Virus genome (UHGV): UHGV-0018639
Source: a virus
Direction: 5' to 3' (one strand)
Length of the DNA: 64,000 nt
Each line of letters begins with the position of its first letter. Position 1 is the first letter of the stretch. The notes under the pieces are model-generated. The model was not told the DNA's origin. It saw only the letters and a list, made by a program, of their open reading frames with translations, and did not search any database. Of this stretch, positions 9,721-58,738 are shown one piece after another. A program made the position numbers and the translations under genes.

Positions 9721-10983
9721 TCAATCTTTATTTTTCAAAATCAGATTGAGAATAATACCAGCTATAAGAGCAAGTGCAGTAGCGGAAATTGAAAAATCAG
9801 CGCCACCAATCGCAAGGCCGCTTATGCCGAGAGAAAGAACCGCAGAGACAATTATCAAGTTCTTTTGCTCATTCAAATCAACTTGCTGCAGCATTTTTAC
9901 GCCACTACAAGCAATAAATCCATAGAGAACAATTGCCGCGCCAGCAAAAACGCAAGCCGGGATTGAACTAATAAAAGCTTGGACCGGCACAAAGAAGCCC
10001 ATAAGTATCAATATAAATGCGGCGGTTCCGCTCACTTTCGCAGAAGCAACTTTGCTAAATCCAACACAAGCAACGCCTTCACCATAAGAGCAAGCGCCGA
10101 GTCCGCCAAGTAAACCACTAACAGCATTTGCAAGTCCTTCACCAGCAAAGATACGGTTAAGGCCGGGCTTTTTGTAAAGATCAATACCAATTATATTACT
10201 GAGCGCGGCGTGATCGCTAAGAGCTTCCATCATTGCACTTATAGTGTAAGCAATAAACAAAATTATAAGAGGAATAAGCTGCGGCAGTTCAATAAATTTG
10301 CCCCAATCAACGTGAGAAACCGCGAGGTCAGGCAATGCGAAAAGGGCCATATTTTCAAAGACGTTAAAATCGACAACAGGAAAAATCTTCGTGATTGTCA
10401 GAATAATTGCATAAATATAACCAACTAAAGTGCCAAGCAGGAACGGGAGAATCTTTATAATTCCTTTCGCATAATGTGAAAAGAGTGCAATTGCTATCAT
10501 TGTGATGATAGCTACACTAACGCCCCACATATTAGTTTCGCCATTTATCTGAACATAAGTCAAGATAAAAGGCATAAGGTTAATACCTATAACAACCGTG
10601 ACTGCGCCGATCAATGACTTAGGAAAAATTTTATATATATTTTCAACAGGAACACGACTAAAGATAAGACCAAAAATTGTATAAACAACCCAAATTACAA
10701 AACAGCCAATAATTGCGCCTTCATAACCACAAGAAGTAAGTGCAATTATGATAGGAGCGACAAAAGCGCCAGAGTTTGAAATGAACATTGGGGATTGTCC
10801 TTTTGTTATAAGAATATAAGCCAGAGTACCACAGCCCGCGCCAACGAGTGCACCAGATACGGCGACACCACAAATATTAGCAATGAGCGTTGTGGCAACT
10901 ATAATTGACAGCATCATTTGTATTGAGAATAATAAAAGCTGCCCGAATGGAATTTTATCATCTAAAGAATATTTCATTACCAA
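9721..10983 (-). CDS. nucleobase:cation symporter-2 (NCS2) family permease, uracil/xanthine permease-like
   Basis: About 12 TM segments. Spacing and motifs parallel UraA/PyrP: LGYIYA, EALSDH, and GLLGGLGACSYGEGVACVGFSKV matching GFFGSTPNTTYGENIGVMAITRV. Confidence 0.7.
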   Translation of the reverse strand: MVMKYSLDDKIPFGQLLLFSIQMMLSIIVATTLIANICGVAVSGALVGAGCGTLAYILITKGQSPMFISNSGAFVAPIIIALTSCGYEGAIIGCFVIWVVYTIFGLIFSRVPVENIYKIFPKSLIGAVTVVIGINLMPFILTYVQINGETNMWGVSVAIITMIAIALFSHYAKGIIKILPFLLGTLVGYIYAIILTITKIFPVVDFNVFENMALFALPDLAVSHVDWGKFIELPQLIPLIILFIAYTISAMMEALSDHAALSNIIGIDLYKKPGLNRIFAGEGLANAVSGLLGGLGACSYGEGVACVGFSKVASAKVSGTAAFILILMGFFVPVQAFISSIPACVFAGAAIVLYGFIACSGVKMLQQVDLNEQKNLIIVSAVLSLGISGLAIGGADFSISATALALIAGIILNLILKNKD

Positions 10984-13492: not shown

Positions 13493-14002
13493 TCAAATTT
13501 TGAGTTCACAAATGTGCGCTTTTTCCAAAGTTTGGTGAACATCTATAAGGCGCTGATTACGAGAGCCACGGAATGGCAAAGTTAAATCACGCTGCTCAAG
13601 AATAAAAGGGCCATCTACCACAACATCGCAAAGTTGGAGTGTTGTTGAAATGCGGCGAGGGGGATTGAAATCCTCCCAGTCCAAGTGGTAGCCAGTATAG
13701 AGCCAAATGTCTTTATTAGGAAATTTTTCTTTGATTTCTCTTAACAACTTATAGATAGTATTGTTGTTTTGTGGCTCAAGTGGATGACCGCCAGAAAGAG
13801 TGATTCCTTTTATCCAAGGCTTTGAAAGAGCGTCAAATAGTTCTTCTTTCGCGGTGTCATCAAAAAGTTTACCTGCGCAGAAATCCCAAGTTTCAGGATT
13901 ATGACATTCTTTGCAATGGAGAGAACATCCTGAAACCCAAAGAACGACACGCACGCCAAGACCATTTGCGATGTCGCATTTTGTTATTTTGATATAATTC
14001 AT
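13493..14002 (-). CDS. nrdG: anaerobic ribonucleoside-triphosphate reductase activating protein (radical SAM)
   Basis: CSLHCKEC (Cx3Cx2C) cluster in VVLWVSGCSLHCKECHNPETW. Start taken as the internal Met MNYIKITKCDIANG, overlapping the nrdD stop. Confidence 0.8.
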   Translation of the reverse strand: MNYIKITKCDIANGLGVRVVLWVSGCSLHCKECHNPETWDFCAGKLFDDTAKEELFDALSKPWIKGITLSGGHPLEPQNNNTIYKLLREIKEKFPNKDIWLYTGYHLDWEDFNPPRRISTTLQLCDVVVDGPFILEQRDLTLPFRGSRNQRLIDVHQTLEKAHICELKI

Positions 14003-14982
14003 TATGATTCTCCCAAATGTAAGACACGCTCTTTTATTTCTTGGGTACGGCCAAAATTCCAAAAATTAGAGCCAATATAGCCGCAAGTACGACGTGCAAC
14101 GTTCAAGGTAGAATGATCACGGTTGCCGCAATTTGGACAATACCACTCCATATTATCATCAATGAGAATTTCGCCATCGAAGCCACATTTCTGACAGTAG
14201 TCGCTCTTTGTATTAAGTTCAGCATACATTATGTTATCATAAATAAACCTATAAAGCTCTAAGACGGCAGGAATATTGTTTTGTAAATTAGGAACCTCTA
14301 CATAGCTTATTGCACCGCCCGGACTAAGTTTTTGAAACTCAGCCTCGAAAGCAAGTTTATCAAAAGCATTGATTTCTTCAAAAACAGGAACATGATAACT
14401 ATTTGTAATATAATTACGGTCATGCCCATCGAGTTTAATAAATATATCATTGCCAAATCGCTGTTTTAGGCAACGCGCAAACTTATATGTTGTACTTTCA
14501 ATAGGAGCACCATAGAGAGAATAATCAATTTTTTCAGCAGCTTTCCATTCAGCACACTTCTCATTTAAACGTGCCATTACTTCAAGAGCAAAAGGTTTCC
14601 CATCAGTCTGTGTATGGCTATGCCTTGTCATATATTTTACGCACTCATAAAGACCAGCATATCCAAGTGAAATTGTTGAATAGCCATTATGAAGCAATTT
14701 ATCAAGCCTCTCACCTTTTTCAAGACGAGCGAGTGCGCCATTTTGCCAAAGAATAGGGGCAACATCACTAAGGGTTCCCTCAAGACGCTTATGTCTAAGT
14801 TGAAGTGCTTTGTGGCATAATTCAGTACGCTCTTCAAATAGCTGCCAAAACTTATCAATATTACCGCCTGAACTAAAAGCTAAATCTGGTAAACTAATTG
14901 TAACAACACCTTGGTTAAAACGACCATAGTATTTTGGGTTATTATTTTCATCAACATAAGGAGTTAGGAAGCTCCTGCACAT
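14002..14982 (-). CDS. nrdD: anaerobic ribonucleoside-triphosphate reductase, exon 2 (C-terminal half with glycyl-radical domain)
   Basis: Glycyl radical motif RRTCGYIGS near the C-terminus. Zn ribbon CQKCG...CPNCG. The exon boundary lies upstream of the listed Met. Confidence 0.8.
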   Translation of the reverse strand: MCRSFLTPYVDENNNPKYYGRFNQGVVTISLPDLAFSSGGNIDKFWQLFEERTELCHKALQLRHKRLEGTLSDVAPILWQNGALARLEKGERLDKLLHNGYSTISLGYAGLYECVKYMTRHSHTQTDGKPFALEVMARLNEKCAEWKAAEKIDYSLYGAPIESTTYKFARCLKQRFGNDIFIKLDGHDRNYITNSYHVPVFEEINAFDKLAFEAEFQKLSPGGAISYVEVPNLQNNIPAVLELYRFIYDNIMYAELNTKSDYCQKCGFDGEILIDDNMEWYCPNCGNRDHSTLNVARRTCGYIGSNFWNFGRTQEIKERVLHLGES

Positions 14983-15742
14983 ATTATCCCATATCCCTAT
15001 GGGTACTGACTATATCTTCATTCCACTAAAAAGTGGAGTTGTCTTCCGCTTCGAGTGAGTGCCTATCTCTCACCCTACTCCCTTACATTCATCAGGGATA
15101 GTCGATACACTTCATTCATCATAATAAAAATTATAAGGAGTATTATTTGTCCGTTGCTGTAAAAGAAAGGTCCTGATACGATGTCTATCAATACCAGTTT
15201 TACGTTCGCATTCTCTCATTGACTTATAGTGAAAACGTTCTTTTGTCTCTTTATTTTCAGCAATTATCCAAATTCCACGCCCTTTATGCGGATTTATATA
15301 ATTGTTTTCCTGATAAGCCTTTCTAATATTTTCGCTGTGAGATACGGCCCGCAAATTAGAAAGTTCATTATGTGATTTATTTCCATCAATATGGTCTACA
15401 ACTGTACAATTATCAAGAAAAACTTCCGCCATAAGGCGATGAACGCGAGTTCGTATTCGATTGCCACCAAGACAAAGAACTACGTGTTGATACATATCAA
15501 TGCCAATATATGGACTAATTATTCTTCCCGTTTTAAAATTGATTATTTGAGCATCTTCATTTATACCAAATTGATTATTCAAACTTGGAATGGGCATAAA
15601 TTCTTTCATTATCTCACCTCCTTTTCATATTTATGATATATGATGAATTTTAGCACGGCCTCATCTGTTCTAGACCTAGCCGTTAGCCGCATTTGCGACA
15701 CCCGCGGGCGCGGTTCAAAAGATTTTATATGAGCTGCAGTTT
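14983..15742 (-). mobile_element. group I intron in nrdD carrying an HNH homing endonuclease ORF (boundaries approximate)
   Basis: About 760 nt separating the two nrdD halves. Non-coding flanks are structured; the flank motif ...gggatagtcgatac... recurs in the ORF-less insertion at 23919-24132. T4 nrdD (sunY) also has a group I intron. Confidence 0.6.
15112..15609 (-). CDS. HNH homing endonuclease (intron-encoded)
   Basis: HIDGNKSHNELSNLRAVSHSEN HNH motif. N-terminal IINFKTGRIISPY is AP2/NUMOD-like. Confidence 0.75.
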   Translation of the reverse strand: MKEFMPIPSLNNQFGINEDAQIINFKTGRIISPYIGIDMYQHVVLCLGGNRIRTRVHRLMAEVFLDNCTVVDHIDGNKSHNELSNLRAVSHSENIRKAYQENNYINPHKGRGIWIIAENKETKERFHYKSMRECERKTGIDRHRIRTFLLQQRTNNTPYNFYYDE

Positions 15743-16927
15743 TCACTTACCCATACAAGGATAACAACGACCCTTACCAGTTTTGTCTTTTTTTAATTCT
15801 AACATCATTTTTTCAGAAATAATATCAGGGACAAGACGCTTTGCTGTACATTTTGCTGCAAGTTCTGTTAAGTAAAAATACTTATCGCCCGGCTGTAAAT
15901 TATCAGGTTCAAGGACATAAAGTAACTTAGGAAATGCAGGCGTAATATAAACGCCTTTTTCATTCTTGAAACCTAAAATACGTTGTTTAATAAACTCCTC
16001 TATCAGCATTGCTAATTCATTCTTATATTCTTCTGTCTCGTTTAAATACATAAATACAGAAAGAAATGGTGCTTGACCATTTGTTGTTGTCATTGAATTG
16101 ACTTGATAGTTGAAAGTCTGAACAGCATCAACAACTTCTTTTTTTGTATCAAGTTGCGCATACTTATGCGCATTCTCATCGTCAAATCCCCAATCTTTAT
16201 ACTTCTTGAGATAAGCTTCATAAGAGCTTCTAACAAAAGGTGCAAGATGTGTAAGAGTAATAGTAGCACCACCATATGAAGAAGAAGCGACGCCAAGAAT
16301 TACTTGCGTTGCAATCGTAGAAGCTGTCAGAATTCTATGCGGCTTTTCAATTTTAACGTTATTAATTACAGTACCATTTTGAAGGACATCCTCTAAGTTA
16401 ATAAGATCGCAATTATGGAGGGTCTTCTGGCCGAAATAATCAATATCGTGGAAATGTATAATACCTTTCTCATGCGCGTCCACAATCTCAGGGGGAAGAA
16501 GAAATCGTTTAGAGATGTCTTCGCTAACAATACCGGCCATATAATCACGCTGTGTCGTTACAAGGTCGGCATTTTTATTTGAATTTTCAGCGTTCCAATA
16601 ATCACTTGTACCACTGATTAGTTCAAGTAAATCTTTGTCTGTTGTATTGCCTTCGCGCGCGAGTCTATGTTTATACCTGTATTCAACATAGCGCTCAGCC
16701 ACGTCTTTTCTTGAACTAGCCATAAGCCGCTCAACTACTAAGTCTTGAATTTCTTCAACGCTCAAATCTCTATTAAGCTTTTCTATTTGAGTAGCCACCA
16801 TTCGTGCCTTATTTTTGGCATAAGATGTTTCACGTCCATCTACTTCCAAAAAGGCTTTGAGAATGGCGACTCTAATTTTCTCTTTATCAAATGGAACCGT
16901 AGTTCCATCACGTTTTATGACGTACAA
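15743..16927 (-). CDS. nrdD: anaerobic ribonucleoside-triphosphate reductase, exon 1 (ATP-cone plus N-terminal catalytic half)
   Basis: ATP-cone VIKRDGTTVPFDKEKIRVAILKAF. Conserved NrdD core GIIHFHDIDYF. Last codons before the stop are probably intron-derived. Confidence 0.8.
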   Translation of the reverse strand: MYVIKRDGTTVPFDKEKIRVAILKAFLEVDGRETSYAKNKARMVATQIEKLNRDLSVEEIQDLVVERLMASSRKDVAERYVEYRYKHRLAREGNTTDKDLLELISGTSDYWNAENSNKNADLVTTQRDYMAGIVSEDISKRFLLPPEIVDAHEKGIIHFHDIDYFGQKTLHNCDLINLEDVLQNGTVINNVKIEKPHRILTASTIATQVILGVASSSYGGATITLTHLAPFVRSSYEAYLKKYKDWGFDDENAHKYAQLDTKKEVVDAVQTFNYQVNSMTTTNGQAPFLSVFMYLNETEEYKNELAMLIEEFIKQRILGFKNEKGVYITPAFPKLLYVLEPDNLQPGDKYFYLTELAAKCTAKRLVPDIISEKMMLELKKDKTGKGRCYPCMGK

Positions 16928-18267: not shown

Positions 18268-19728
18268 TTACTCACCCCTTACATGAGTTGTTATACGGCC
18301 ATATTCATCAATATCTGTTATTTCTTCAACCAGATGGTATGGGGTTCGGGAATATTTCTTCGCCAGAAATCCATCATCCTTTCTAATGCCACATACGATT
18401 ATCTTGTTGCCACGTGAGAAAGTGCTGCGACTGATAACGTGTTTCTTCCCATCAGGCCCTCTCTCCGAAATTTGCTTATCATAATTAGCAAATGCTTCGC
18501 CAAAAATTTTGACCTGAACAACGCCATCTTTTGTCAATAACGAAACAATTTTCTTTGCCTTATCCCTATCCAATACAGTTCCGCAAATACGATGTATTCT
18601 ATAAATCGGAACCGGCGCGCTATCACTATCCTTGCCGCGCGGTTTGAAGTAAGTCTCAACATCAGGCTGCTCTTTCAGTTTGAAGAAGTTTGAAAAGCCT
18701 TGCGCACGTTCATCAACATTTTGAAGTTCATGTTCGTGGAAATAACATGAAACGCTATCCATCTCCCACTTGCTTATTGAACCAAGACAATATTTATTCC
18801 AGATATCTCGCGTTAATCGCTCATTCACGGTATCTAGCAACTCATCATGATTTTCTTTTATCCACTTGCGGACATTATCCATATATTTCTTATAAATTTT
18901 GTCCCAAGCCGTGATGTTAATTTTGAAGCCACTTTCAGTTTCATTGCTTGCGCTCAAACAGTCAAGTGAAAAATTCTTATCAAGGAAATTCAATGCGATA
19001 TTATCTATGCCATAGAATGATGTGTCTAACTTCATTTTCTTGAGATACTTTGTGAAGTTATAAACACGACGCTCAAAATCAAGATTTTCGGGAATCAACC
19101 CAAAGTTTATCAACATTGCCATATTCTGAAGAGTGATACGTTTCTTTGTGTCGCTAATCAGGCTGACATATTCGCGCATTAAATCTACTCTATCACCAAA
19201 TGCATCAAAAGCTCCGCATTTTATGAGGTTTATCATTTGTGGCTTGTTGATTTTTACTTTGGAAAGAAAATCGGAGATTGAGTTATAGGGTCGATTTGCG
19301 ATTATGGATTTAACGATGTCTTCGCCGACTTTGACGATACCGCTCATACCATAACGAATTGTTGAATTTTCAACATCAGGAGAGAAAGTAAAAGTAGATT
19401 TGTTGATATCTGGAGGAGAAACCGAAATACCGGCCATTCGCATTTTACCGATTGCTGATGCAATTTTGCCATAGTTAGTCGTTTTGACTTTTTTCTTTTT
19501 CTTTTTTACATCAATTTTTTCTTCTTCGTCTTCATCTTCGTCGTCATCTTCGGTATCATCAACAAATTCTTCAATACAGTTGTTATAACTATATTCAATA
19601 ATATCTTCTGGCGTTTCGTCATCGTTCTCATCATTTGATTCATTGCCGCCGCTATCGCTAATCAAACACGCGCAATTCCAAAAAATTGTTGGAAAACGAT
19701 ATGCAAGATTCATTTCCTGCAAAGCCAC
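18268..19728 (-). CDS. DNA polymerase III alpha (DnaE-like), C-terminal portion (fingers/HhH/OB)
   Basis: GISVSPPDINKSTFTF matches the DnaE (V/I)LPPDIN.S..F motif. Long acidic linker. C-terminal OB-like region. Confidence 0.6.
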   Translation of the reverse strand: MALQEMNLAYRFPTIFWNCACLISDSGGNESNDENDDETPEDIIEYSYNNCIEEFVDDTEDDDEDEDEEEKIDVKKKKKKVKTTNYGKIASAIGKMRMAGISVSPPDINKSTFTFSPDVENSTIRYGMSGIVKVGEDIVKSIIANRPYNSISDFLSKVKINKPQMINLIKCGAFDAFGDRVDLMREYVSLISDTKKRITLQNMAMLINFGLIPENLDFERRVYNFTKYLKKMKLDTSFYGIDNIALNFLDKNFSLDCLSASNETESGFKINITAWDKIYKKYMDNVRKWIKENHDELLDTVNERLTRDIWNKYCLGSISKWEMDSVSCYFHEHELQNVDERAQGFSNFFKLKEQPDVETYFKPRGKDSDSAPVPIYRIHRICGTVLDRDKAKKIVSLLTKDGVVQVKIFGEAFANYDKQISERGPDGKKHVISRSTFSRGNKIIVCGIRKDDGFLAKKYSRTPYHLVEEITDIDEYGRITTHVRGE

Positions 19729-20855
19729 AAGCGAGTAGGAAAGAGTATGTGCTCGACAACTTACCGCACATAGTTTCTTATGCCAGATTTACTCTGTTGC
19801 GGTCTGGACTATACCATCAATTTCATTGTTTCCAATGAAAAAGTCCTTATTATAGTCTCTGAACGTTTTTCTTATCTCAATATATTTTCTATTCATACCA
19901 AAAGGCTTATTATAAACTAGAGCGATTAGTTTTAGGATATTGAACTGATTAGCGGTTTCAACTCTATATAAGCTATCTTCAGTTTTTCTTATATGTAAAT
20001 CTTCCATAAAGAAATTTTCTACTAAGATTTTTTCAATCCATTTGATAAATTCTTCAGATGCTGATACTATATAAAATTGAGCACCGCCATAAGAAGTTTT
20101 ACTGACACACCCATCACCGTCTATTATACCACGAATAATGTAAGGCAAATATCGCTTTTCTTGCTCATACAATTGCGGCGCCGGTATAATATATGTTTTA
20201 TTCTTTATTATACCATAACGGGCAGCCTCAGCTTGAAGACCCGGCCTATTTATCAATACCCTATATCGAGTTTGCTTTCCAGCTTGAGGATAGGCCTTAT
20301 AAGTTATTCCAATTCCTTTAGCTATAAAAGCAATAACATCTTCGTCCACCATATCCAACCCTAAGCCATCTCGATCGCTCAATAGATATCCATCCGTAAG
20401 CAGTAGCCCGATTAGATATGCATCGAACGGACTTTTGATTTCAGATAACGAATAGGTATATCCTCGACGATTATCTTGCGCTTGCCGTATAATTTCTTGA
20501 TATTCATCTGGATAATACTTTTTTACCTTGTCGGTTATAGACTTCTTTGTTTTATAACCATATCGACCCATTAGCTCTGAAACCGATGCCCCATTCTTAT
20601 ATTCTTCAACTAATTTTAGTTCATCTTCTTTTGATATTTTCTGATAACCCATAGTATATCCCTCCTAAGAATAAGTAGCCCTATTCAAATAGAAATACAC
20701 TAAAATAAGAAACTTCGCTGCGGATTATCCAATTCTAAATGATTTTACTATACCCTCTCTCTTTCTGAGAGGCCGCGATATTATTGCTAATATCGTTTAG
20801 TTATTTAGACTCTAAGGAAGTCCCCGCAATTTCAAGGATTTATACTCGTCTTGTA
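19729..20855 (-). mobile_element. intervening sequence in DnaE-like gene carrying a LAGLIDADG endonuclease (probable group I intron; boundaries approximate)
   Basis: Polymerase N- and C-terminal parts are contiguous ORFs on the same strand separated by ~1.1 kb. About 200 nt of structured non-coding flank lies at 20653-20855. Confidence 0.45.
19789..20652 (-). CDS. LAGLIDADG homing endonuclease (double-motif)
   Basis: Two LAGLIDADG motifs: LIGLLLTDGYL and IIRGIIDGDGCV. N-terminal HTH-like region. Confidence 0.8.
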   Translation of the reverse strand: MGYQKISKEDELKLVEEYKNGASVSELMGRYGYKTKKSITDKVKKYYPDEYQEIIRQAQDNRRGYTYSLSEIKSPFDAYLIGLLLTDGYLLSDRDGLGLDMVDEDVIAFIAKGIGITYKAYPQAGKQTRYRVLINRPGLQAEAARYGIIKNKTYIIPAPQLYEQEKRYLPYIIRGIIDGDGCVSKTSYGGAQFYIVSASEEFIKWIEKILVENFFMEDLHIRKTEDSLYRVETANQFNILKLIALVYNKPFGMNRKYIEIRKTFRDYNKDFFIGNNEIDGIVQTATE

Positions 20856-23360
20856 TTAGTCAAACGAGTACCCGCGCTGAACTCTGAACAAAACGTCCCA
20901 TACATAATGGGCAAAAGTCATATCACAACCTTTTTCTTTTGCATTTTCAAAATAGGCTTTTTCACATTCATCAAAGAGTTTGCCTTGTTTTTTTGCAATT
21001 GCCTTTCGACATTTATCTGCAAAAGTCAGATTATTCCCTCCGAGTCTTTCTTCCTGCAGAAGCTGCATCATTCCTTCTTGACTCTCACATATGCCACTCG
21101 TTATCGCATTATGTCCAATTAACCATTTTATATCTTCATTTTTTAATCCATATTGAATCATTTCGTCTCGCCATTCATTGATATTCAAACGATATCTTGC
21201 CCACATATCAAGTGGCTGCTCAGCTCCTTTTTCAGGAGCCATTAGACGAATTACTGAATTCAAAACAGCTAATTCACTAACGTTTTTAGGATGAGTTAGC
21301 GCTATGCCAGAAATGCCGCTCGGTTGTTCCATTTGAAACAAACTGGATATCTTATGATTCCAAACCATTTCCCACATTTCTGGTGCAGTTCGTTCAAGAT
21401 TATATATGCCAATTACACTTTCATAAGTTTCACGTAATGTTGGCTTTCGCTCTATATAACCATAATCACATAACAAATCTAGCTCATTGTGTATTTTATC
21501 AAGAGCTTCAATTGACAACATATCAATTTTGATCAGCGATGCGTCCTCCGCATCATGGAGTTCAAAAGCCGTAATGACCGTGCCATCAGGCGCGCGTGTT
21601 AGCGCTGTCGATTCCGTAAAAGGCTCGTCAACGAAGATCACTCCACCGGCGTGGACGCCAATGCCACAAATTAACCCCTCAATTTTTGAAGCAACTTCCC
21701 AAACATCACTGTAGGTTTTCATTGCTTCAACAAATTGCTTTACTGGCTTAAAACCTTTATCTTCATCACCCTCTATACATTGGGTAAGTGAGCGAAGTTG
21801 CCCGCGATCAGCTGGAATCAGAGATGCCAAATAGGATGCTACATCAACATCAATTCCCAAGCCACGGCAGGCCGTTAGAATTGCTGATTTAGATTTTTCT
21901 GTTTTGAATGTAATAACATTCGCAACTCTGTCTTCCCCATAAAACTCACGGAATTTCTGTAAAACTTGTGCACGACGTCCGCCTTCAATATCAGTATCAA
22001 CGTCCAATACCGACGCACGTTCGGGATTAAGAAAACGCCAATGAAATACTTGAGTTTCTTCTTGAATTGGATTTATCTGTGTTATATCTAATGCATATAA
22101 CAAAATAAATCCTGCACCTGAACCACGCCCCGGCCCAACAAGAGAACCAGCTTCCCAACATAAATCAATATTTTTCTGCAGATTCAGAAAATAAGTCGAC
22201 CAATGCGTGTGATTTGTTATCGACGAACGCCATGTATCATCAAGACAAATATTTATCTCATCATACGCTCGTTTGTTCTGCAAACCCGGCTTCCGTTGGA
22301 TGCCGTCAATAATCGCCCAAACCAGTTTTCTATCACCCCAATAATCAGAGTTATAGAAAGTTTCTAAATAAGGAATTTCATGTTTGAGAATATCATATGC
22401 TGCCTCATCTTCAGGAAATGTTTTCCAATAAAGTTCTGGAATTTTTAAGGGGCGCATTAGTGAAAAATCTTCACACATTTCACCTATCTTGAGAATATTA
22501 TAATATGCAACTTGAAGTTGTTCTTCGGTGAAATAATCGAAATACTCTTCTATTTCTTTCGTATTCATAAGATACGTAGTAGCATAGAAATCATCTACTT
22601 CTCGTTCACCATTCTGTGCATTGAGATATGCCTTATGAATCGCGCGATCTTCTTTTTTGAGATAATGGCTATCAGTTGTTATAACATAAGAAATGTCGTA
22701 TTTAGCTGATAATTCAAGCAACTTTTTATTTACATAAATTTGTTCTTTGTTATGACTTGGTTGCATTTCAAAAAAGAAATTACCGTGCCCAAAAAGTTTA
22801 TCCAAAGATAAAATCCAATTTTCAATTTTGCTATTGAGCGAGCTATCATTTCGTGCTTTGAGAAGCTGAGTAGGAAGACAGCCACCGAGGCAAGCTGTCA
22901 TTCCCACAATGTGTCCCGGATTAGCCCCTACGATTTCAAACAAATCACTATAATAAGTTGGCATACGACGCATACCACGCGCCATATAACTACGTAATCC
23001 TGCACGAGTAGATAATTCTCTAATTTGTTTATGCCCAATCGCGTCTTTTGCTAACAAAATAAAGTGATAATATTTATCTTGTCCTGTAATAAAATTCGAT
23101 GCATTTAACCCATTTCGACAAAGATAAATTTCATTTCCTTGAATAAATTTGAAATCAGGGTATTTTTCTTTTACTTTTTTATAATACTTTTCTGCCTTAA
23201 TCGCGCCAGATATTGACTCATGGTCTGTAAGAGCGACGACTTTATGACCCAACTCGATGGCGCGATCAATTAGGTCTGAGACTTTTATTATACAGTCTCG
23301 AAGCCTTTCATTAGAATAATCCGAGTGGTTATGTAATGACCCCGGATACGGAATATTCAA
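20856..23360 (-). CDS. DNA polymerase III alpha (DnaE-like), N-terminal portion (PHP and polymerase core)
   Basis: PHP domain start NIPYPGSLHNHSDYSNERL...ALTDHESISG. 834 aa. Consensus promoter upstream at 23393-23421. Confidence 0.8.
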   Translation of the reverse strand: MNIPYPGSLHNHSDYSNERLRDCIIKVSDLIDRAIELGHKVVALTDHESISGAIKAEKYYKKVKEKYPDFKFIQGNEIYLCRNGLNASNFITGQDKYYHFILLAKDAIGHKQIRELSTRAGLRSYMARGMRRMPTYYSDLFEIVGANPGHIVGMTACLGGCLPTQLLKARNDSSLNSKIENWILSLDKLFGHGNFFFEMQPSHNKEQIYVNKKLLELSAKYDISYVITTDSHYLKKEDRAIHKAYLNAQNGEREVDDFYATTYLMNTKEIEEYFDYFTEEQLQVAYYNILKIGEMCEDFSLMRPLKIPELYWKTFPEDEAAYDILKHEIPYLETFYNSDYWGDRKLVWAIIDGIQRKPGLQNKRAYDEINICLDDTWRSSITNHTHWSTYFLNLQKNIDLCWEAGSLVGPGRGSGAGFILLYALDITQINPIQEETQVFHWRFLNPERASVLDVDTDIEGGRRAQVLQKFREFYGEDRVANVITFKTEKSKSAILTACRGLGIDVDVASYLASLIPADRGQLRSLTQCIEGDEDKGFKPVKQFVEAMKTYSDVWEVASKIEGLICGIGVHAGGVIFVDEPFTESTALTRAPDGTVITAFELHDAEDASLIKIDMLSIEALDKIHNELDLLCDYGYIERKPTLRETYESVIGIYNLERTAPEMWEMVWNHKISSLFQMEQPSGISGIALTHPKNVSELAVLNSVIRLMAPEKGAEQPLDMWARYRLNINEWRDEMIQYGLKNEDIKWLIGHNAITSGICESQEGMMQLLQEERLGGNNLTFADKCRKAIAKKQGKLFDECEKAYFENAKEKGCDMTFAHYVWDVLFRVQRGYSFD

Positions 23361-29155: not shown

Positions 29156-30058
29156 TTACTCTTGATTTTGAGCAAGTTCAGCATATCTTTTTTCCTCTTC
29201 TCCAGAGGAATAGAGTCTCGTGGATTTTATATCATAAAAGTTTTTCATTGCTTGATATTTTCTTTCCATATAAATAGAATTGGGCACATACAGAATCTCA
29301 AAAAGTCTTAAGATAGTGTCTTTTTTATAAACTTGTATTGTATAAAAATGGTCGCCTTGACTGAGCGTCGCTGTGCTGGTCGAAAGAGAGGTAATAATAC
29401 CATATTTATTCAGAAGAACTTGCCGCATCCATTCAATAACTTCTTTTCTTGCTCCACAAATATACCAATTATAATGATATTTTTTATAATCAGTCCAAAT
29501 ACATCCATCTCCATCAAAATATCCTCGAATATAAGAGATAAAATATTGTTCATCAAGAAAAGTCGGCGGTGTTAGAGTAAAAGTTTTACGAGGTATTATT
29601 CCATAATGGGCTAAATCTTGTTTGATAGTATGACTACAAACTCTTAGCCGGCTATACTCACAACCTGAATTATTTGTATAATGCTGAATAGGTCCCTCAT
29701 ATTTTAGTTCTTCTTTTATCTTATACAATATTTCTTCATCGGATCTTTGAATATCTATTGTAAAATGATTCGTATCTTTTGATACTCCGCCATCGGAAGC
29801 TAAAAATCCAAGAATATAAGCCATATTATGAGATTGTATCTTGAAATAATCGTCATTAACATTATAAGCTCGACATTCTTTTGCAGCTTCTTGCCGATTA
29901 CGAACCTTTACTCCCCATTTTTTCAAGTATCTTTGAATTGTCGCTCCTGAAGCTCCTCCAACATCTCGGCCAATAGCATTTACGCCTCTTTTTAGAACTG
30001 TATAATTATAAATTATAAATTCTTTTTGTTCATCTGTAAATGAAATAGATTTACCCAC
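29156..30058 (-). CDS. LAGLIDADG homing endonuclease (double-motif)
   Basis: ILGFLASDGGV and IRGYFDGDGCI. Confidence 0.8.
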   Translation of the reverse strand: MGKSISFTDEQKEFIIYNYTVLKRGVNAIGRDVGGASGATIQRYLKKWGVKVRNRQEAAKECRAYNVNDDYFKIQSHNMAYILGFLASDGGVSKDTNHFTIDIQRSDEEILYKIKEELKYEGPIQHYTNNSGCEYSRLRVCSHTIKQDLAHYGIIPRKTFTLTPPTFLDEQYFISYIRGYFDGDGCIWTDYKKYHYNWYICGARKEVIEWMRQVLLNKYGIITSLSTSTATLSQGDHFYTIQVYKKDTILRLFEILYVPNSIYMERKYQAMKNFYDIKSTRLYSSGEEEKRYAELAQNQE

Positions 30059-40993: not shown

Positions 40994-42093
40994 CTCCTAA
41001 ATTTTTGTTCTTGTTCTTTTTTGACGCGACGGCGTTTTACCCATAAAAGAAAGTCCTGAGCACGTGTAATAGCGACATAAGCAAGGCGTCCTTCCTCAAC
41101 CATATCAAGCGGCACTCTGTGGGTATAATAATTCGGCTCAGGAATTGTTGCGCCAATTACTACAACCTTCTTTTGTTGAAGTCCCTTTGATGAATGTATT
41201 GTGAGGACTTTGACAGTATTCTGCTTCATTTTTTCTTGAAGTTGACCAAGATTTACTTCTTTTTGCTTGAAAGTATCGCAAAAAATGCCGCGACTTTCAA
41301 GATAAGATTTGACAGTTTCAAGCTGCGCATTAGTGCGAGTCAATACAAACCATTCACCAAATTTGCCATCTTGAAGTATATAATTTGCAACTGTTTCCAA
41401 ATTGTAAAGAATTGTAATCTTTTTTCCCATTTCATCGCGCATTAGAGTAGAATTGTCATAATAACCACAATTCATCCGCTCAATGGCCCATTTTGCGAAT
41501 TCGTGAATAACACGCGAATTACGGAAATTTTCAGATAGTTTATAAGTTGCTACTCCATCAGTCTGGCTCAAATTTACAATAAGGTCAGGATTACTACCCG
41601 CAAATGCATAGATTGTTTGCTTTTCATCTCCTAATATTGTAAATCGTTTTGGGTTTACCATTTCCAGAATAAACTCAAACTGATGATTATTACTATCTTG
41701 TGCTTCATCAAGCAGCAAATGATCGACAGGAAAGTTATTTACACAACGTGGGTTCTGTTTTACTAAATTAAATAGTTCATCAAAGTCTTCGCTTTCAATT
41801 GTTTCTCTAGTTGCAATTTGTTCAGTGTGAAGTAAAAAGTTTGCAAATGAATGAACAGTGCCACAAAATCCAATCTGTAAAGGCTCAAGACGATTTATAA
41901 TTTCTTGCGCCGCATTATTTGTAAATGTAATAGCCACAATATGTGAGGGCAATGTTCCTTGAGATACAAGCCACTTTATGCGTTCAATAAGGCAAAAAGT
42001 CTTTGAAGTGCCTGCACTAGACATTACGACAACCTTGTCTTCTGGCGCAGTTATTATTCTATGTTGCTGTTCTGTTATTTTTATTTCGTCCAT
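40984..42093 (-). CDS. SF1 DNA helicase (compact UvrD/PcrA-like)
   Basis: Motif I SAGTSKT. Motif II LLLDEAQD. C-terminal motif TIHSSKGLQQKKVVVIG. Confidence 0.65.
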   Translation of the reverse strand: MDEIKITEQQHRIITAPEDKVVVMSSAGTSKTFCLIERIKWLVSQGTLPSHIVAITFTNNAAQEIINRLEPLQIGFCGTVHSFANFLLHTEQIATRETIESEDFDELFNLVKQNPRCVNNFPVDHLLLDEAQDSNNHQFEFILEMVNPKRFTILGDEKQTIYAFAGSNPDLIVNLSQTDGVATYKLSENFRNSRVIHEFAKWAIERMNCGYYDNSTLMRDEMGKKITILYNLETVANYILQDGKFGEWFVLTRTNAQLETVKSYLESRGIFCDTFKQKEVNLGQLQEKMKQNTVKVLTIHSSKGLQQKKVVVIGATIPEPNYYTHRVPLDMVEEGRLAYVAITRAQDFLLWVKRRRVKKEQEQKFRSWE

Positions 42094-42905
42094 TATCCTA
42101 CTCTCTCATTTAATCCAAATTTTTTTGTGTCATAAAATTCAGTCCAATATTTTTCGCGTTCAGTCAGCTTATCTTTTGAAACTTTTTCCAATAATTCAAA
42201 AGTAAAATTTTCAATCCCATCTTCCTCCATTATAGTATGAAGGCGCGAATGACTGATGGTGCCACAATGATAGGCAGACTTAGCGTGTTGAATCCAACGG
42301 TCGCGCACATTTGTGGATTTGCCTATATAAATTTCGCCTGTTTTTTCGCGTGTGATTTTATAGATGCCACTTGGTTGTTCTCCGTTTAAGACACGGCGTG
42401 TCATTTCAAGGACAGGTTTAGCACAATAAGTATCATATATCATTTTATCTATATCAATGCGGCGATTAAGTTTAGGGGCTATTTCGCGCAAGACTTGTAT
42501 GTCATTTAATGCCTCAGGAGACAAATTGACTTTGAAGAAGGTCTGTTCTTCAATCTTTTTCTTTTCACGGCGTATATCTTCATTTAAAACTTCGCGGCGT
42601 TCGCGCAAAGCATCAAGAGCTTTTTGGACAATATCACATTGATATTGCGCATCTTGTGTTTCTTGGTTTATTTGTTCTATTCGAGCGTTATATTGAAGTT
42701 CAACTTCATCAAGCTCTTGTCGATATTTCTCCCTTGCTTCTAAAACATTGCGCGCCGCTTCGTCTATAATTTCTTTTTCTTTTTGTAAAACTAAATTTTT
42801 TTTATAATAGTGAATGTATATAAAATTAGCAATTATCAGTGCAACTATTATGAATATGGCCATTACAATTCCTCCTATATTTCTTACTATATATAAGTAT
42901 ATCAT
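42093..42905 (-). CDS. GIY-YIG nuclease-domain protein with N-terminal TM helix and coiled coil
   Basis: C-terminal GIYKITREKTGEIYIGKS...R...H...E GIY-YIG fold. Hydrophobic helix at residues ~15-35. Long coiled coil. Confidence 0.55.
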   Translation of the reverse strand: MIYLYIVRNIGGIVMAIFIIVALIIANFIYIHYYKKNLVLQKEKEIIDEAARNVLEAREKYRQELDEVELQYNARIEQINQETQDAQYQCDIVQKALDALRERREVLNEDIRREKKKIEEQTFFKVNLSPEALNDIQVLREIAPKLNRRIDIDKMIYDTYCAKPVLEMTRRVLNGEQPSGIYKITREKTGEIYIGKSTNVRDRWIQHAKSAYHCGTISHSRLHTIMEEDGIENFTFELLEKVSKDKLTEREKYWTEFYDTKKFGLNERVG

Positions 42906-51404: not shown

Positions 51405-51643
51405 ATAAATGAGCTGGCATCTCAATAAACTGCCATTAATATGGGTCAGTAGCGAATCGGCAAACGCAACGGGCTGTAAACCCGTCTCCTTCGGGAATAA
51501 TTGGATCGACACCAATCTGACTCACCAAGACGCAGCGGGTGTTAGATTTTCTACTGGGGAATACTGTGTCTAATATAGAGAAAATCATTTTTGTGAAATT
51601 CAAGTATATTCTAGCTAAATATACCGTAAAAGCCGGATTATAT

Positions 51644-52307: not shown

Positions 52308-52892
52308 ATGTCAGCAAATTTTTATATTAGCGATATCCATTTTGGGCATAAAAATATAATAAAATTTGATCATCGTCCTTTTAGTAGTGTTGATGAAATG
52401 AACAGCATACTTATTGCAAATTGGAATGATATAGTTGGTCACAATGATAATATCTACGTTCTTGGTGATTTTTGCTGGGGTAAATCTGATGAGTGGATTG
52501 ATATTCTGTCTCAACTCAAAGGTAATAAGTATCTCATTGCTGGTAATCACGACTTGCGTAATCCTCCTTCAGATGTGCGGCGTTTCTTTCAGGATTGGCG
52601 CGACTACAAAGAAATTTTTGACAATGGCCGCAAGGTTATAATGTGCCATTATCCAATTCCGTTCTATAAGTCAGACTATAATTCAGATACTTATATGTTG
52701 TTTGGTCATTTGCACACAACATTTGAGAATGGGTATATTGAGGATTTGCGCGAACGGATAGAGCACGATCCATATGAGCGTTCAGCAAAAAATCTTTGCC
52801 AGTTTTATAACGTTGGTTGTATGATGCCTTGGATGGAATACAAGCCGCACACGTTGGATGAGATTGTTGAGGGGTTTGGTAAATATCACTAA
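52308..52892 (+). CDS. calcineurin-like metallophosphoesterase
   Basis: DIHFGH, LGDFCWG, GNHDL, CHYP..GHLH motifs. RBS aaaggagat. Confidence 0.7.
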   Translation: MSANFYISDIHFGHKNIIKFDHRPFSSVDEMNSILIANWNDIVGHNDNIYVLGDFCWGKSDEWIDILSQLKGNKYLIAGNHDLRNPPSDVRRFFQDWRDYKEIFDNGRKVIMCHYPIPFYKSDYNSDTYMLFGHLHTTFENGYIEDLRERIEHDPYERSAKNLCQFYNVGCMMPWMEYKPHTLDEIVEGFGKYH

Positions 52893-52902
52893 ACCCACAT
52901 AT

Positions 52903-52991
52903 GCGGGATGAACTCAGACGGCTCTGAGACCGGTCTTGAAAACCGTGGGCAGGTGAAAGCTTGTGGGGATCGACACCTCCGTCCCGCGCCA
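52903..52991 (+). tRNA. atypical type II tRNA-Ser(UGA) with 8/4-like acceptor/T-stem and 6-bp D-stem (allo-tRNA/tRNA-Sec-like architecture)
   Basis: Anticodon arm ccggt-cttgaaa-accg is nearly identical to E. coli tRNA-Ser(UGA). The 5' gcgggatg pairs with cgtcccgc (8 bp). D-arm ctcaga-cggc-tctgag is a 6-bp stem with a 4-nt loop. The variable arm is 20 nt. T-stem gggg/cctc is 4 bp with T-loop atcgaca. Ends gCCA. Confidence 0.6.
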
Positions 52992-53087
52992 GTATGCGGA
53001 GTCAACCAGTAAGGTGCTGGACTCGCCTGCTAAGCGATGTGTAGCTATTCGGCTATTTGGTTCGTGTCCAAGGCTCCGCGCCAATAT

Positions 53088-53163
53088 GTGTCCTTAGTCC
53101 AATCGGTAGAACAACAGACTGTTAATCTGTAGGGTATAGGTTCAAATCCTATAGGACACGCCA
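53088..53163 (+). tRNA. tRNA-Asn(GUU)
   Basis: Acceptor gtgtcct/aggacac. Anticodon arm acaga-ctGTTaa-tctgt. T-arm ataggttcaaatcctat. CCA encoded. Confidence 0.75.
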
Positions 53164-54634: not shown

Positions 54635-54721
54635 GCTGAGTTCCCATAGTGGTCGATTGGAGCGGTTTTGTAAGCCGCAGACTTCGTGTCCGCATCAGTT
54701 CGAATCTGATACTCAGCTCCA
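54635..54721 (+). tRNA. 87-nt tRNA with long variable arm and UGU (Thr-type) anticodon in the 7-nt loop register
   Basis: Perfect acceptor gctgagt/actcagc. Perfect T-arm atcag-ttcgaat-ctgat. Anticodon arm gcggt-ttTGTaa-gccgc, which needs a U-G closing pair; GUA lies one nt 3'. 15-nt variable region agacttcgtgtccgc. CCA encoded. Confidence 0.55.
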
Positions 54722-54843: not shown

Positions 54844-54872
54844 TTGACTTTTTCAAAAAATCTTGATATAAT
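54844..54872 (+). promoter_or_regulatory. sigma70-like promoter driving the large noncoding region and tRNA-Met
   Basis: aaaaTTTGACTttttcaaaaaatcttgaTATAATatatac. Perfect -35 and -10 boxes with a 17-nt spacer. Confidence 0.6.
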
Positions 54873-54896: not shown

Positions 54897-55616
54897 AAAG
54901 TCAAAAGGAGGACGATGCTAGTGCCACCTACACGTGGTATCCTCTGTTTTCGCTAAGAGCGCTGGCATATATTCAATTAAATAATACTAACTCAGTGAAG
55001 ACGGAATTCGATGTTCCGGCTGAGAAATTCTAGCTAGCACAGCAGAAACGAAACAAGGATACTTGTGGATACTGGACTGGGAGGCCATCGAGAGATGAGC
55101 CGAAGTAGAGCGGTTGCTCAAGTGGGAAGAAGAGCAGGAATTGTGCTGAGTGAATCGCAAGTAAACGCAGCCGTGGAGTGGCGGGCGCAATAGATAGCTT
55201 GGTGAATAGCCAAGCCGAATCCAAGTTAGGTTTTAGTTGGTGACTGTGACAATCCTTGGAAAAGCCAATAAGCTCGTTCCGTTGAGACGACAGGGAATGT
55301 GAAATCTGTCTTTGACACTCTACAGTATCCGAGTAGCGGAACACAACGGGGACTTTAGATTAAAAAGATGTTGACAGTAATAGAAATTACTACTTTCTGA
55401 ACATCCCGTGAAAGGTAGAGGTAATCAATCCTCTGGCGGATTAGGCGACATTAGACACTTGGGGTTATCCAAGACTAACAAGTCAATGTTGTTGCTGGGG
55501 TAAGAAGTGTATGGGCGACGGCCTGTATGCTCAGACTTATCTCCCGCGTGGCAGAATATGCTTGAAGGTTTATCGAGGTAGGGCGAAGGCCCAGTAATAT
55601 TTAGTTGGATTTATAT
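54897..55616 (+). ncRNA. candidate large structured noncoding RNA (about 720 nt) co-transcribed with tRNA-Met
   Basis: No credible ORF. GC content is locally elevated with many local hairpins. Strong consensus promoter upstream. tRNA and terminator immediately downstream. Context matches that reported for GOLLD/ROOL-class large phage ncRNAs. Confidence 0.35.
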
Positions 55617-55689
55617 GGCAGGAAGAGAAGGTTCTCCGTTTGGCCTCATAAGCCAGACTTCGTAGGTTCGATTCCTACTCCTGCAACCA
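55617..55689 (+). tRNA. tRNA-Met(CAU) (possibly initiator-like; alternatively a lysidine tRNA-Ile2)
   Basis: Anticodon arm tttggc-ctCATaa-gccaga. T-arm gtaggttcgattcctac. Acceptor ggcagga/tcctgca with a 1:72 G-A mismatch. CCA encoded. Confidence 0.6.
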
Positions 55690-56926: not shown

Positions 56927-56962
56927 CTCCACATTAGAAAAGCCTAATGTGGACTTTTTTAT
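56927..56962 (+). terminator. rho-independent terminator
   Basis: ccacattag-aaaagc-ctaatgtgg followed by acttttttat. Confidence 0.6.
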
Positions 56963-57665: not shown

Positions 57666-57986
57666 ATGGATAAATATACTGGCTATTACGAATGGCGCCC
57701 ATCAGAGCAAGGGCTTGAGGACTTTTATTCTGGCTTTTTTACTCCTGCGGGGATGGGTCTGGTAGAAAACCAGTATTTGATTATCTATGACGCTGATGGC
57801 AAAGTTATAGATAAATATTTTTGTAAGAACAACGAGTTTGAGAAAGTTCATTATATGACACTCCAAAGCGATTACTGCGGCGTTATCAAACCGCGCAATG
57901 TGTATCAGGAACTAGCAATTCACGCACTGTTAGATAGGCGTGTTCCTGTAAAGGCGCTGGGTGGTGTTTTTGGTTCGGGTAAATAA
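57666..57986 (+). CDS. phoH: PhoH-like ATPase, exon 1 (ends in Walker A GSGK)
   Basis: IKPRNVYQELAIHALLDRRVPVKALGGVFGSGK parallels PhoH I.P.t.gQ..yi.a......vfgiGpAGtGKT. Stop immediately after the K. Confidence 0.6.
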   Translation: MDKYTGYYEWRPSEQGLEDFYSGFFTPAGMGLVENQYLIIYDADGKVIDKYFCKNNEFEKVHYMTLQSDYCGVIKPRNVYQELAIHALLDRRVPVKALGGVFGSGK

Positions 57987-58212
57987 CTTGCCCCTTCTTA
58001 GGGCGACCTAAGAATGAAAATCGCGTGAATTGCTGGAAACCTAAGCCGCGAGGTATGGTAATCAGCAGCCAAGCCGTTTAACAACGGAAGGTTCAACGAC
58101 TATCCCGACAGGGAGTAGGGAGCAATCCCGAAGTGCGCGACAACTTTCAAAGTTGATGATATAGTCTAATCCCCTTTTGAAATATCGGGAAACCGAGGGT
58201 ATAAATGAAGGA
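57987..58212 (+). mobile_element. ORF-less group I intron in phoH (boundaries approximate)
   Basis: About 225-nt non-coding insert exactly at the P-loop. Contains ggtatggtaatcagcagccaagcc, resembling the Tetrahymena intron segment GGUAUGGUAAUAAGCUGACGG...CAGCCAAGUCC (P5/P6-J6/7). Also contains gatgatatagtct. Confidence 0.55.
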
Positions 58213-58738
58213 CTTCCTAATGAGCGGTGCCTGTTTCAGTCTTATCGAAAAAGGCATCTTTGAAAAACTCGTATATATACGCCCTAACATTACACTTGAA
58301 GGTGTGCCTGACATCGGCTATCTCAAGGGTGGAATGGATGAAAAACTTGAATGGACTTTAGCTCCATTATGGGATAAGTTCGGTGGCCGCGAAGCTACTC
58401 AAAATCTTGTTGCTTCTGGCAAGATTGAACTTGTGGCTTTGCCTTTTATTAAAGGTCGTAGCTTTGAGAACAGTATTATCTATGTAAGTGAAGGTCAAAA
58501 TATAACCCGCAAAGTAGCTGGTAATATTATAAGCCGCGCTGGTGAAAACACTGAGATTTGGATAAATGGCGACTATCACAGTCAAACTGACCGTAGAATG
58601 TTTGAGATTGATAATGGTATGCGCGCAATGGAAGAGACTCTGAAGGGTAATTCATTATATGAAACCCTTTATCTCCCAATCACGGAACGTTCGGCTGTTG
58701 CACAGCTTGCTGGAATTGTTTGCAATACTGAAAATTGA
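58213..58738 (+). CDS. phoH: PhoH-like ATPase, exon 2
   Basis: (K)DFLMSGACFSLIEKGIFEKLVYIRPNITLEGVPDIGYLKGGMDEKLEWTLAPLWD; ELVALPFIKGRSFENSIIYVSEGQNIT; GENTEIWINGDYHSQTD. All three match the PhoH core. Confidence 0.65.

Follow-up and report, generated by a model that had tools for sequence, protein, structure and literature searches.

A tRNA-Ser(UGA) gene with an 8-bp acceptor stem and a 4-bp T-stem in the tRNA array of a human-gut phage

Can a phage tRNA gene carry the anticodon arm of an ordinary serine tRNA on a cloverleaf that is not that of an ordinary serine tRNA, and if so, what would such a molecule do? The question is raised by a tRNA-Ser(UGA) gene on the + strand at positions 52903-52991 of a 64,000-nt stretch of the virus genome UHGV-0018639. 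This whole stretch, which is from a human-gut phage, is referred to here as the window. A preliminary description, made from the sequence alone, had given the gene an 8-bp acceptor stem, a 6-bp D-stem with a 4-nt loop, a 4-bp T-stem and an A at position 54, and we found all of these features in place. The present analysis confirms that the gene is real and that the observation of an 8/4 tRNA-Ser(UGA) holds. Its product is very probably an 8/4 phage serine adaptor with an ordinary role, predicted from its sequence to be charged by the seryl-tRNA synthetase (SerRS) of the host. The gene belongs to a kind of phage (8/4) tRNA-Ser that, according to the text of Mukai et al., was already described in 2017 (PMC5389517), and it is less novel than the preliminary description had scored it.

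The gene is 89 nt long, an encoded CCA included; its parts are listed in Table 1. The 5' half reads GCGGGAUG-AA-CUCAGA-CGGC-UCUGAG-A-CCGGU-CUUGAAA-ACCGU and the 3' half GG-GCAGGU-GAAA-GCUUGU-GGGG-AUCGACA-CCUC-CGUCCCGC-G-CCA. Seven Watson-Crick pairs and a U7.G pair make up the 8 bp of the acceptor stem. The coaxial helix of acceptor and T-stems has the usual total of 12 bp, divided 8+4 rather than 7+5. The anticodon UGA lies at 52937-52939. Its stem has four Watson-Crick pairs and, at the outermost position, a C.U mismatch (52930/52946), a detail absent from the preliminary description; a sixth position would be A.G. The variable region is 18 nt long and contains a hairpin of 5-6 bp in the minimum free energy (MFE) fold. 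The elements of serine identity are present (the long variable arm and G73), and G3:U70 and U73 are absent. The anticodon arm matches the 17-nt motif ACCGGUCUUGAAAACCG (A-CCGGU-CUUGAAA-ACCG), which is present in about 95 canonical 7/5 tRNA-Ser(UGA) genes on viral contigs; its near-identity to the canonical arm, claimed earlier, is borne out. With canonical class II tRNA-Ser(UGA) the gene has in common this motif, the long variable arm, G73 and, presumably, the identity elements for SerRS. In canonical tRNA-Ser the acceptor stem has 7 bp, the T-stem 5 bp and the D-stem 3-4 bp with a loop of 9-11 nt, and the T-loop is UUCGAAU; none of these acceptor, T-stem, D-arm and T-loop features fits the gene described here.

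ARAGORN, which the preliminary description had proposed as a check, calls a tRNA-Ser(tga) of 89 nt at exactly 52903-52991 when run at an 80% score threshold, and draws it as 8/4. The drawing gives a D-stem of only 4 bp because of the limits of ARAGORN's own model; the two inner D-stem pairs are backed by covariation (AU:6 GC:5 UA:1 and GC:5 AU:4 CG:2 UG:1). At the Rfam gathering thresholds nothing is reported at the position of the gene, and the window gives 11 tRNAs, a ROOL RNA and a group I intron. In a relaxed search the only Rfam family to match the gene is tRNA-Sec (RF01852), end to end, with 46.2 bits, which is better than a chance match (E = 1.7e-8 for 251 nt, 5.4e-7 for 8.2 kb). Rfam's general tRNA model (RF00005) has no match in 52850-53100 even at E<=10; the 11 other tRNAs of the array score between 44.8 and 71.3 bits with it. 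The silence of the general model, the end-to-end alignment to tRNA-Sec and the 8/4 drawing agree with the earlier placement of the gene in the class of allo-tRNAs and tRNA-Sec-like molecules and not with ordinary tRNA-Ser. R1, a covariance model derived from the UGA family, gives the gene 104.8 bits, as is expected by construction.

Three IMG/VR contigs of 125-155 kb, all from one metagenome, contain an exact copy of a 33-mer taken from the D and anticodon arms. The 21-mer ACCGGTCTTGAAAACCGTGGG is present in 23 viral contigs and in five contigs of a set made up of one representative genome each of 185,579 bacterial and archaeal species. Two of the matches to this 21-mer are ordinary 7/5 tRNAs and one is not a tRNA. 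Five more, on viral contigs (L129, L130, L138, L140 and L141), failed a strict 8/4 parser; R1 matched four of them at full length (62-63 bits) and the fifth weakly (32.5 bits). All the others combine 8 bp in the acceptor stem with 4 bp in the T-stem. Within the 185,579-species set the 8/4 shape with this anticodon-arm signature was found three times, always on phage-like or tRNA-array contigs.

Twelve distinct homologues with a 6-bp D-stem, all from uncultivated phage contigs, were aligned (alignment A1). They had been gathered by an anticodon-arm pattern and a filter on acceptor and T-stem pairing, and their D-stems and variable stems were unfiltered. When the cloverleaf is laid on A1, 98.1% of the cells are paired and double-sided changes are seen in 16 of 27 pairs. 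The covariation score of 0.664 compares with 0.18 for shuffled columns and at most 0.10 for slid partners. Both sides have changed in all six D-stem pairs and in six of the eight acceptor pairs (n=12), and four of the five variable-stem pairs covary. The eighth acceptor pair is GC in eight homologues, UA in three and CG in one (n=12). The last D-loop base is C in 10 of the 12. In this UGA set the T-stem GGGG/CCUC is invariant together with its G.U pair, and the T-stems of the GCU relatives covary (UUGG/CCAA, GUGG/CCAC, GGGA/UCUC and UGUC/GACA).

An end-anchored, alignment-free count covered 23 related Ser tRNAs, whose anticodons are of four kinds. In every one of them the discriminator is G and the eighth acceptor pair is Watson-Crick (GC 8, UA 7, AU 5, CG 3). 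Each of the Ser isoacceptors (UGA, CGA, GGA and GCU) can be 8/4 in related contigs; L134 alone has 8/4 tRNAs with UGA, CGA, GGA (two copies) and GCU anticodons. Ser tRNAs of the 8/4 kind whose anticodon is GCU or CGA also show the C27.U43 mismatch at the top of the anticodon stem, a feature for which they had not been selected. Judged from these sequences, the 8/4 architecture is kept by compensatory substitutions across many uncultivated phages. In the T-loop, positions 54 and 58 tend to vary jointly: among the 23 related tRNAs they are A/A in 12, G/G in four and U/A in three, a pattern suggestive of a homopurine contact of 54 with 58 in place of the usual U54-A58 pair in 8/4 Ser T-loops.

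The same count bears on the simplest alternative, namely that the gene is an ordinary 7/5 tRNA-Ser whose first T-stem pair is mismatched and whose eighth acceptor pair is a coincidence. A fold with seven acceptor pairs and a 4-bp T-stem can be drawn at -31.5 kcal/mol, and the anticodon arm matches, as noted above, the 17-nt motif of canonical 7/5 genes. However, the 8/4 cloverleaf (-34.1 kcal/mol, against an unconstrained MFE of -34.6) is more stable than that fold by 2.6 kcal/mol. The additional T-stem pair that a 7/5 fold requires (49:65) would be U.C in this gene, and it forms in just 10 of the 23 relatives, whereas the eighth acceptor pair forms in all 23; this contrast supports the claimed 8/4 geometry. 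A 6-bp D-stem with a tetraloop, covarying at six pairs, is also incompatible with the D-arm of canonical tRNA-Ser, and the generic tRNA model of Rfam fails to match at E<=10. The 7/5 reading is largely refuted, and we regard it as almost certainly wrong.

If the gene is an 8/4 serine tRNA, established tRNA biology suggests how it would be made and used. It would be transcribed together with the surrounding + strand array. RNase P would form the 5' end by cutting at G52903 (the nucleotide before it is a U, as in most relatives), and trimming of the 3' end would stop at the encoded CCA. SerRS recognizes the long variable arm and G73, not the anticodon, and the enzyme of the host would charge the tRNA with serine; diversion to AlaRS or CysRS is unlikely in a molecule that has no G3:U70 and no U73. 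The 13-bp helix of tRNA-Sec is the one that SelB handles. Because the helix of tRNA-Ser(UGA) has 12 bp, delivery to the ribosome would be by EF-Tu rather than SelB. The codons read would be UCA and UCG, and UCU too if U34 is modified. Serine codons in the 31 long open reading frames (ORFs) of the window are UCU (28%), UCA (22%), AGU (22%), AGC (14%), UCG (7%) and UCC (6%), and the two 8/4 Ser tRNAs of this phage (UGA and GCU) could serve about 94% of them. Their purpose would be the usual one of phage tRNA arrays, to help translate an AT-rich phage genome. The steps of this scheme draw on general tRNA biology and on PMC5389517; the gene, its fold and its conservation come from the present analysis.

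Several points weigh against a functional serine tRNA. ARAGORN at its default setting makes no call for the gene, though it finds 13 + strand tRNAs between 50349 and 56922, and the Rfam tRNA-Sec score of 46.2 is 0.8 bits under the gathering score of 47. The z-score of the MFE against shuffled sequences is an unremarkable -1.49, and therefore thermodynamics alone are no proof of the fold. In alignment A1, collection by an anticodon-arm pattern and a pairing filter partly selects for the pairing of the acceptor and T-stems and for the invariance of the anticodon stem. The fit to the SerRS of the host is assumed. Finally, the C27.U43 mismatch and A54, which leaves no U54-A58 pair, could reduce function.

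A decayed pseudogene or non-functional relic within the array would account for some of these points, since the default tRNA finders reject the gene, its anticodon stem has a C.U mismatch and its T-loop is atypical. It is nevertheless very unlikely. Every stem is intact, as are the anticodon loop, G73 and the CCA, and the same odd features recur in divergent phage contigs along with compensatory changes. The T-loop AUCGACA itself is also found in a canonical 7/5 tRNA-Tyr of the window. Near-identical strains show only pair-preserving substitutions. In variants with an identical upstream protein the tRNA differs from that of the window at four positions, all in stems and all preserving the pair: an A-U to G-C change at two positions of the D-stem (the fourth pair in L143), a change of the acceptor U7.G to U-A (L143) and one of G-C to G.U in the anticodon stem. 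The acceptor U7.G is C-G in L003. These changes argue that the structure is under purifying selection and that the gene is not a pseudogene. Neither a 7/5 fold nor a pseudogene, the two outcomes that the preliminary description had set against itself, was found.

Because the best Rfam match is tRNA-Sec, at 46.2 bits, the gene might also be taken for a relative of that tRNA or for a recoding tRNA, either converted to Sec or Cys or charged with an amino acid other than serine and mistranslating UCA. Like bacterial tRNA-Sec (RF01852; selC), it has eight acceptor pairs, a D-stem of 6 bp with a loop of 4 nt, a long variable arm and G73. The acceptor/T helix of tRNA-Sec is 13 bp long (8/5 in bacteria, 9/4 in archaea and eukaryotes), its anticodon is UCA and its anticodon stem has 6 bp. 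In contrast, tRNA-Ser(UGA) has 12 bp (8/4), a UGA anticodon, four anticodon-stem pairs plus mismatches and a score below gathering. It is not a tRNA-Sec. A 9/4 fold through a ninth pair, U52902.G52988, was considered and rejected because the CCA follows G52988: such a pair would use up the discriminator that precedes the encoded CCA.

Recoding in a wider sense has a precedent, in that the published allo-tRNAs, as far as the text of the 2017 paper goes, mostly have non-serine anticodons and function as suppressors of the missense or nonsense type (PMC5389517). Yet the anticodon here is UGA, for serine, and not UCA; the alanine determinant G3:U70 and the cysteine determinant U73 are both absent; and Pfam and PHROG scans of 41 ORFs of the 64-kb window (all of at least 200 aa and most of the shorter ones near the array) found no SelA, SelB, SelD, SerRS or other aminoacyl-tRNA synthetase. 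Because a serine anticodon is combined with serine identity elements, recoding by tRNA-Ser(UGA) is not expected, and we consider this whole group of readings exceedingly unlikely.

An 8/4 serine adaptor has close counterparts in the literature. Mukai et al. described tRNAs with 8/4 and 9/3 acceptor branches in 2017 (PMC5389517), and according to that text (8/4) tRNA-Ser occurs in phage tRNA clusters and also in some bacteria, and other 8/4 allo-tRNAs fold, undergo processing, are charged with serine and are used by the ribosome of E. coli (PMC5389517). The gene of the window shares with the (8/4) tRNA-Ser of that text an acceptor stem of 8 bp with a T-stem of 4 bp, the long variable arm, G73, a serine anticodon, a long D-stem with a tetraloop and a place in the tRNA cluster of an uncultivated phage. 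A pyrimidine at position 20 is given there as the criterion for counting an (8/4) tRNA-Ser as an allo-tRNA (PMC5389517). The D-loop CGGC ends in the pyrimidine C, where the last D-loop base is equated with position 20 from tRNA-Sec numbering.

There are differences as well. The phage examples in the text of Mukai et al. come from a marine macroalgal-surface metagenome and from alpha-proteobacterial phages, and stand alongside (8/4) tRNA-His; the present gene belongs to human-gut phages that have relatives binned with Prevotella, and tRNA-His is absent from the window. Allo-tRNAs in general are described there as having an anticodon stem longer than the canonical one (PMC5389517), whereas that of tRNA-Ser(UGA) has four Watson-Crick pairs and a recurrent C.U mismatch. 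The T-loop begins with A54, which may be a further difference. The C27.U43 mismatch, the invariant GGGG/CCUC T-stem and the pattern at T-loop positions 54 and 58 may be new relative to that text. A full-text literature search returned no later paper on natural phage 8/4 tRNAs. The allo-tRNAs of Acidobacteria and others and the selC* tRNA-Cys have the 8/4 geometry and the tRNA-Sec-like D-arm in common with our gene. They have missense or nonsense anticodons, or U73 with GCA or UCA anticodons, and are associated with toxin-antitoxin loci or with a CysRS of their own. In contrast, tRNA-Ser(UGA) has a cognate serine anticodon, G73 and a position in a phage tRNA array, and implies no recoding.

Why serine tRNAs should have this shape is a separate matter. 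It could be adaptive, a serine-specific disguise that hides the tRNA from some factor of the host or a phage directed at canonical tRNA-Ser, for example a tRNA nuclease, a defence system or a regulator. Within the array only the Ser tRNAs are 8/4 and the other 12 are 7/5, all Ser isoacceptors of unrelated phage contigs share the shape, and 8/4 tRNAs with this signature are nearly absent from the 185,579-species set, the three cases being those on phage-like or tRNA-array contigs. The translation machinery would accept such a disguise because the helix still has 12 bp and the variable arm and G73 are intact. If the idea were true, 8/4 Ser genes would be defence-proof spare tRNAs in phages of the gut and other environments. 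We think it unlikely, however, since no nuclease, defence or counter-defence gene is linked to tRNA-Ser(UGA) here; common ancestry and horizontal spread of one phage tRNA-Ser lineage explain the distribution equally well; and, from the text of Mukai et al., some bacteria have 8/4 tRNA-Ser too (PMC5389517). Nothing in the present data supports such an insulation.

The finding leaves the current understanding of translation unchanged; its consequences are for annotation and for the known range of these tRNAs. Default ARAGORN and the Rfam tRNA model both miss tRNA-Ser(UGA), and the Rfam model misses the adjacent tRNA-Ser(GCU) too. Because the tools miss the 8/4 fold, phage tRNA inventories and analyses of codon supply that use standard pipelines will count too few serine tRNAs. 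The range of (8/4) tRNA-Ser is extended to human-gut phages of about 125-170 kb, in Hadza and other gut samples, and to at least a dozen sequence-distinct phage lineages, one relative being binned with Prevotella. All four Ser anticodons can adopt the 8/4 shape, and the environments go beyond those of the 2017 description. Natural 8/4 scaffolds serve as a chassis for genetic-code expansion, and the relatives supply design constraints for them: the AA linker, the CGGC D-loop, C27.U43, the GGGG/CCUC T-stem and T-loops with A54/A58 or G54/G58.

Table 1. Coordinates of tRNA-Ser(UGA), its parts and other features of the window
Feature	Position	Strand	Basis
Whole (8/4) tRNA-Ser(UGA)	52903..52991	+	Sequence; ARAGORN -ps80; Rfam tRNA-Sec, 46.2 bits over 52902-52988
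Acceptor stem, 5' strand GCGGGAUG, 8 nt, partner 52980-52987	52903..52910	+	8/8 pairs
AA linker from acceptor stem to D-stem	52911..52912	+	AA in 21/23 related 8/4 Ser tRNAs, AC in 2
D-arm: 6-bp stem CUCAGA/UCUGAG, tetraloop CGGC at 52919-52922	52913..52928	+	Covariation; in MFE fold
A26 and anticodon arm CCGGU / loop CUUGAAA (52935-52941) / ACCGU	52929..52946	+	Sequence
Long variable arm: GG, stem 52949-52954 / 52959-52964, GAAA loop	52947..52964	+	MFE fold; covariation
T-arm: 4-bp stem GGGG/CCUC with one G.U; 7-nt loop AUCGACA (A54, U55, C56)	52965..52979	+	ARAGORN drawing
Acceptor stem, 3' strand CGUCCCGC (52980-52987), G73 (52988), encoded CCA (52989-52991)	52980..52991	+	Sequence
Neighbouring tRNA-Ser(GCU), 8/4: GCGGAGUC/GGCUCCGC, T-stem UUGG/CCAA	52996..53083	+	Default ARAGORN call, drawn 8/4
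Intervening-element loci	57666-58738; 14002-16927, 18268-23360, 29156-30058, 42093-42905	first +, rest -	

The tRNA-Ser(UGA) gene begins 10 nt past the stop codon of a metallophosphoesterase ORF (52308-52892) and ends 4 nt ahead of tRNA-Ser(GCU). The array contains 13 other tRNAs on the + strand, with encoded CCA and spacers of 3-4 nt to the next tRNAs. The MFE fold of tRNA-Ser(GCU) is the 8/4 cloverleaf; R1 matches it at full length with 52.8 bits and no mispairs, and the Rfam tRNA model has no match to it even at E<=10. A scan of the window with R1 gave no 8/4 tRNA beyond these two, and the remaining 12 tRNAs of the array are 7/5. One of these, the canonical tRNA-Tyr(GUA) at 51443-51527 (+), has the same T-loop AUCGACA with A54 as tRNA-Ser(UGA), so A54 is not tied to the 8/4 fold in this phage. 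A terminator-like hairpin at 56928-56953 follows the last tRNA. A scan of the array for sigma-70 promoters was uninformative (20 sites against 17.1 expected), and of these signals the hairpin alone looks meaningful.

Other members of the array are of interest in their own right. The tRNA-Thr(UGU) at 54635-54721 (+), also found at 545-631 of L002, has a length of 87 nt and a variable arm that is long and forms a stem, as in class II tRNAs. It has U73 and the pairs G1-C72/C2-G71, and the Rfam tRNA model still gives it 49.5 bits. In bacteria, long variable arms are as a rule found only in Leu, Ser, Tyr and Sec tRNAs. A full-length ROOL RNA (268.9 bits) lies within the array at 54967-55612 (+), preceded by the best sigma-70-like promoter match of the region (54844-54872; 11/12, extended TG). 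Abutting the ROOL RNA is a weak tRNA-Met(CAU) at 55612-55689 (+), which has A.C and U.C mismatches in its acceptor stem and an Rfam score of 28.4 bits, under the gathering score of 29.

Assemblies from the human gut, among them one of a Hadza sample, contain identical copies of the upstream protein. The phage genes of the window include those for a split family-A DNA polymerase, a RecJ-like nuclease, DnaB helicase, topoisomerase II subunits, a split anaerobic ribonucleotide reductase, DNA ligase, UvrD helicase, homing endonucleases, PhoH with a group I intron, Clp protease and tail proteins. A megablast search with the 8 kb surrounding tRNA-Ser(UGA) against 50,697 GenBank phage records gave no match and no cultured relative, and distant blastn of both Ser tRNAs against GenBank phage records gave one weak 54-nt match, to a Mycobacterium phage. 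The exact junction of flank and tRNA has no match in IMG/VR, and the window is therefore not one of its contigs. A match in a 'Prevotella' genome (L124) was considered as a copy in a host chromosome and rejected: this 147-kb contig is a binned phage, because its phage genes (SPFH protein, phage DNA polymerase) and the order of its tRNAs are those of the IMG/VR contig L003. Beside its tRNA array L124 encodes, at 3454-4629 (-), a 391-aa DUF2828/DUF7788/VWA protein (PHROG 850, 'RNA-binding protein'), of which no counterpart was seen among the scanned ORFs of the window.

The stop codons of the 31 long ORFs are TAA in 19, TGA in 12 and TAG in none, and the trinucleotide TAG is about half as frequent in the window as TAA or TGA. 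Suppressor-type tRNAs occur in related contigs, with CUA anticodons in L009, L065 and L075 and a UUA anticodon in L107. Recoding of stop codons within the window was considered and rejected; ORFs of genetic code 11 cover 88.7% of it, and TAG is simply rare, its reverse complement CTA being equally so. In relatives or in other parts of the genome, stop codons may be recoded.

Intervening elements are numerous in this genome. PhoH (57666-58738, +) is interrupted by a group I intron at 57971-58189 (88 bits), the NrdD of the anaerobic ribonucleotide reductase is divided between two ORFs about 760 nt apart, and the halves of the DNA polymerase are separated by a LAGLIDADG ORF. Further LAGLIDADG and GIY-YIG ORFs are present in the window. 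The ORF at 9721-10983 (-) encodes a membrane transporter of the xanthine/uracil permease family (PF00860, 184 bits), an unusual auxiliary gene for a phage replication module.

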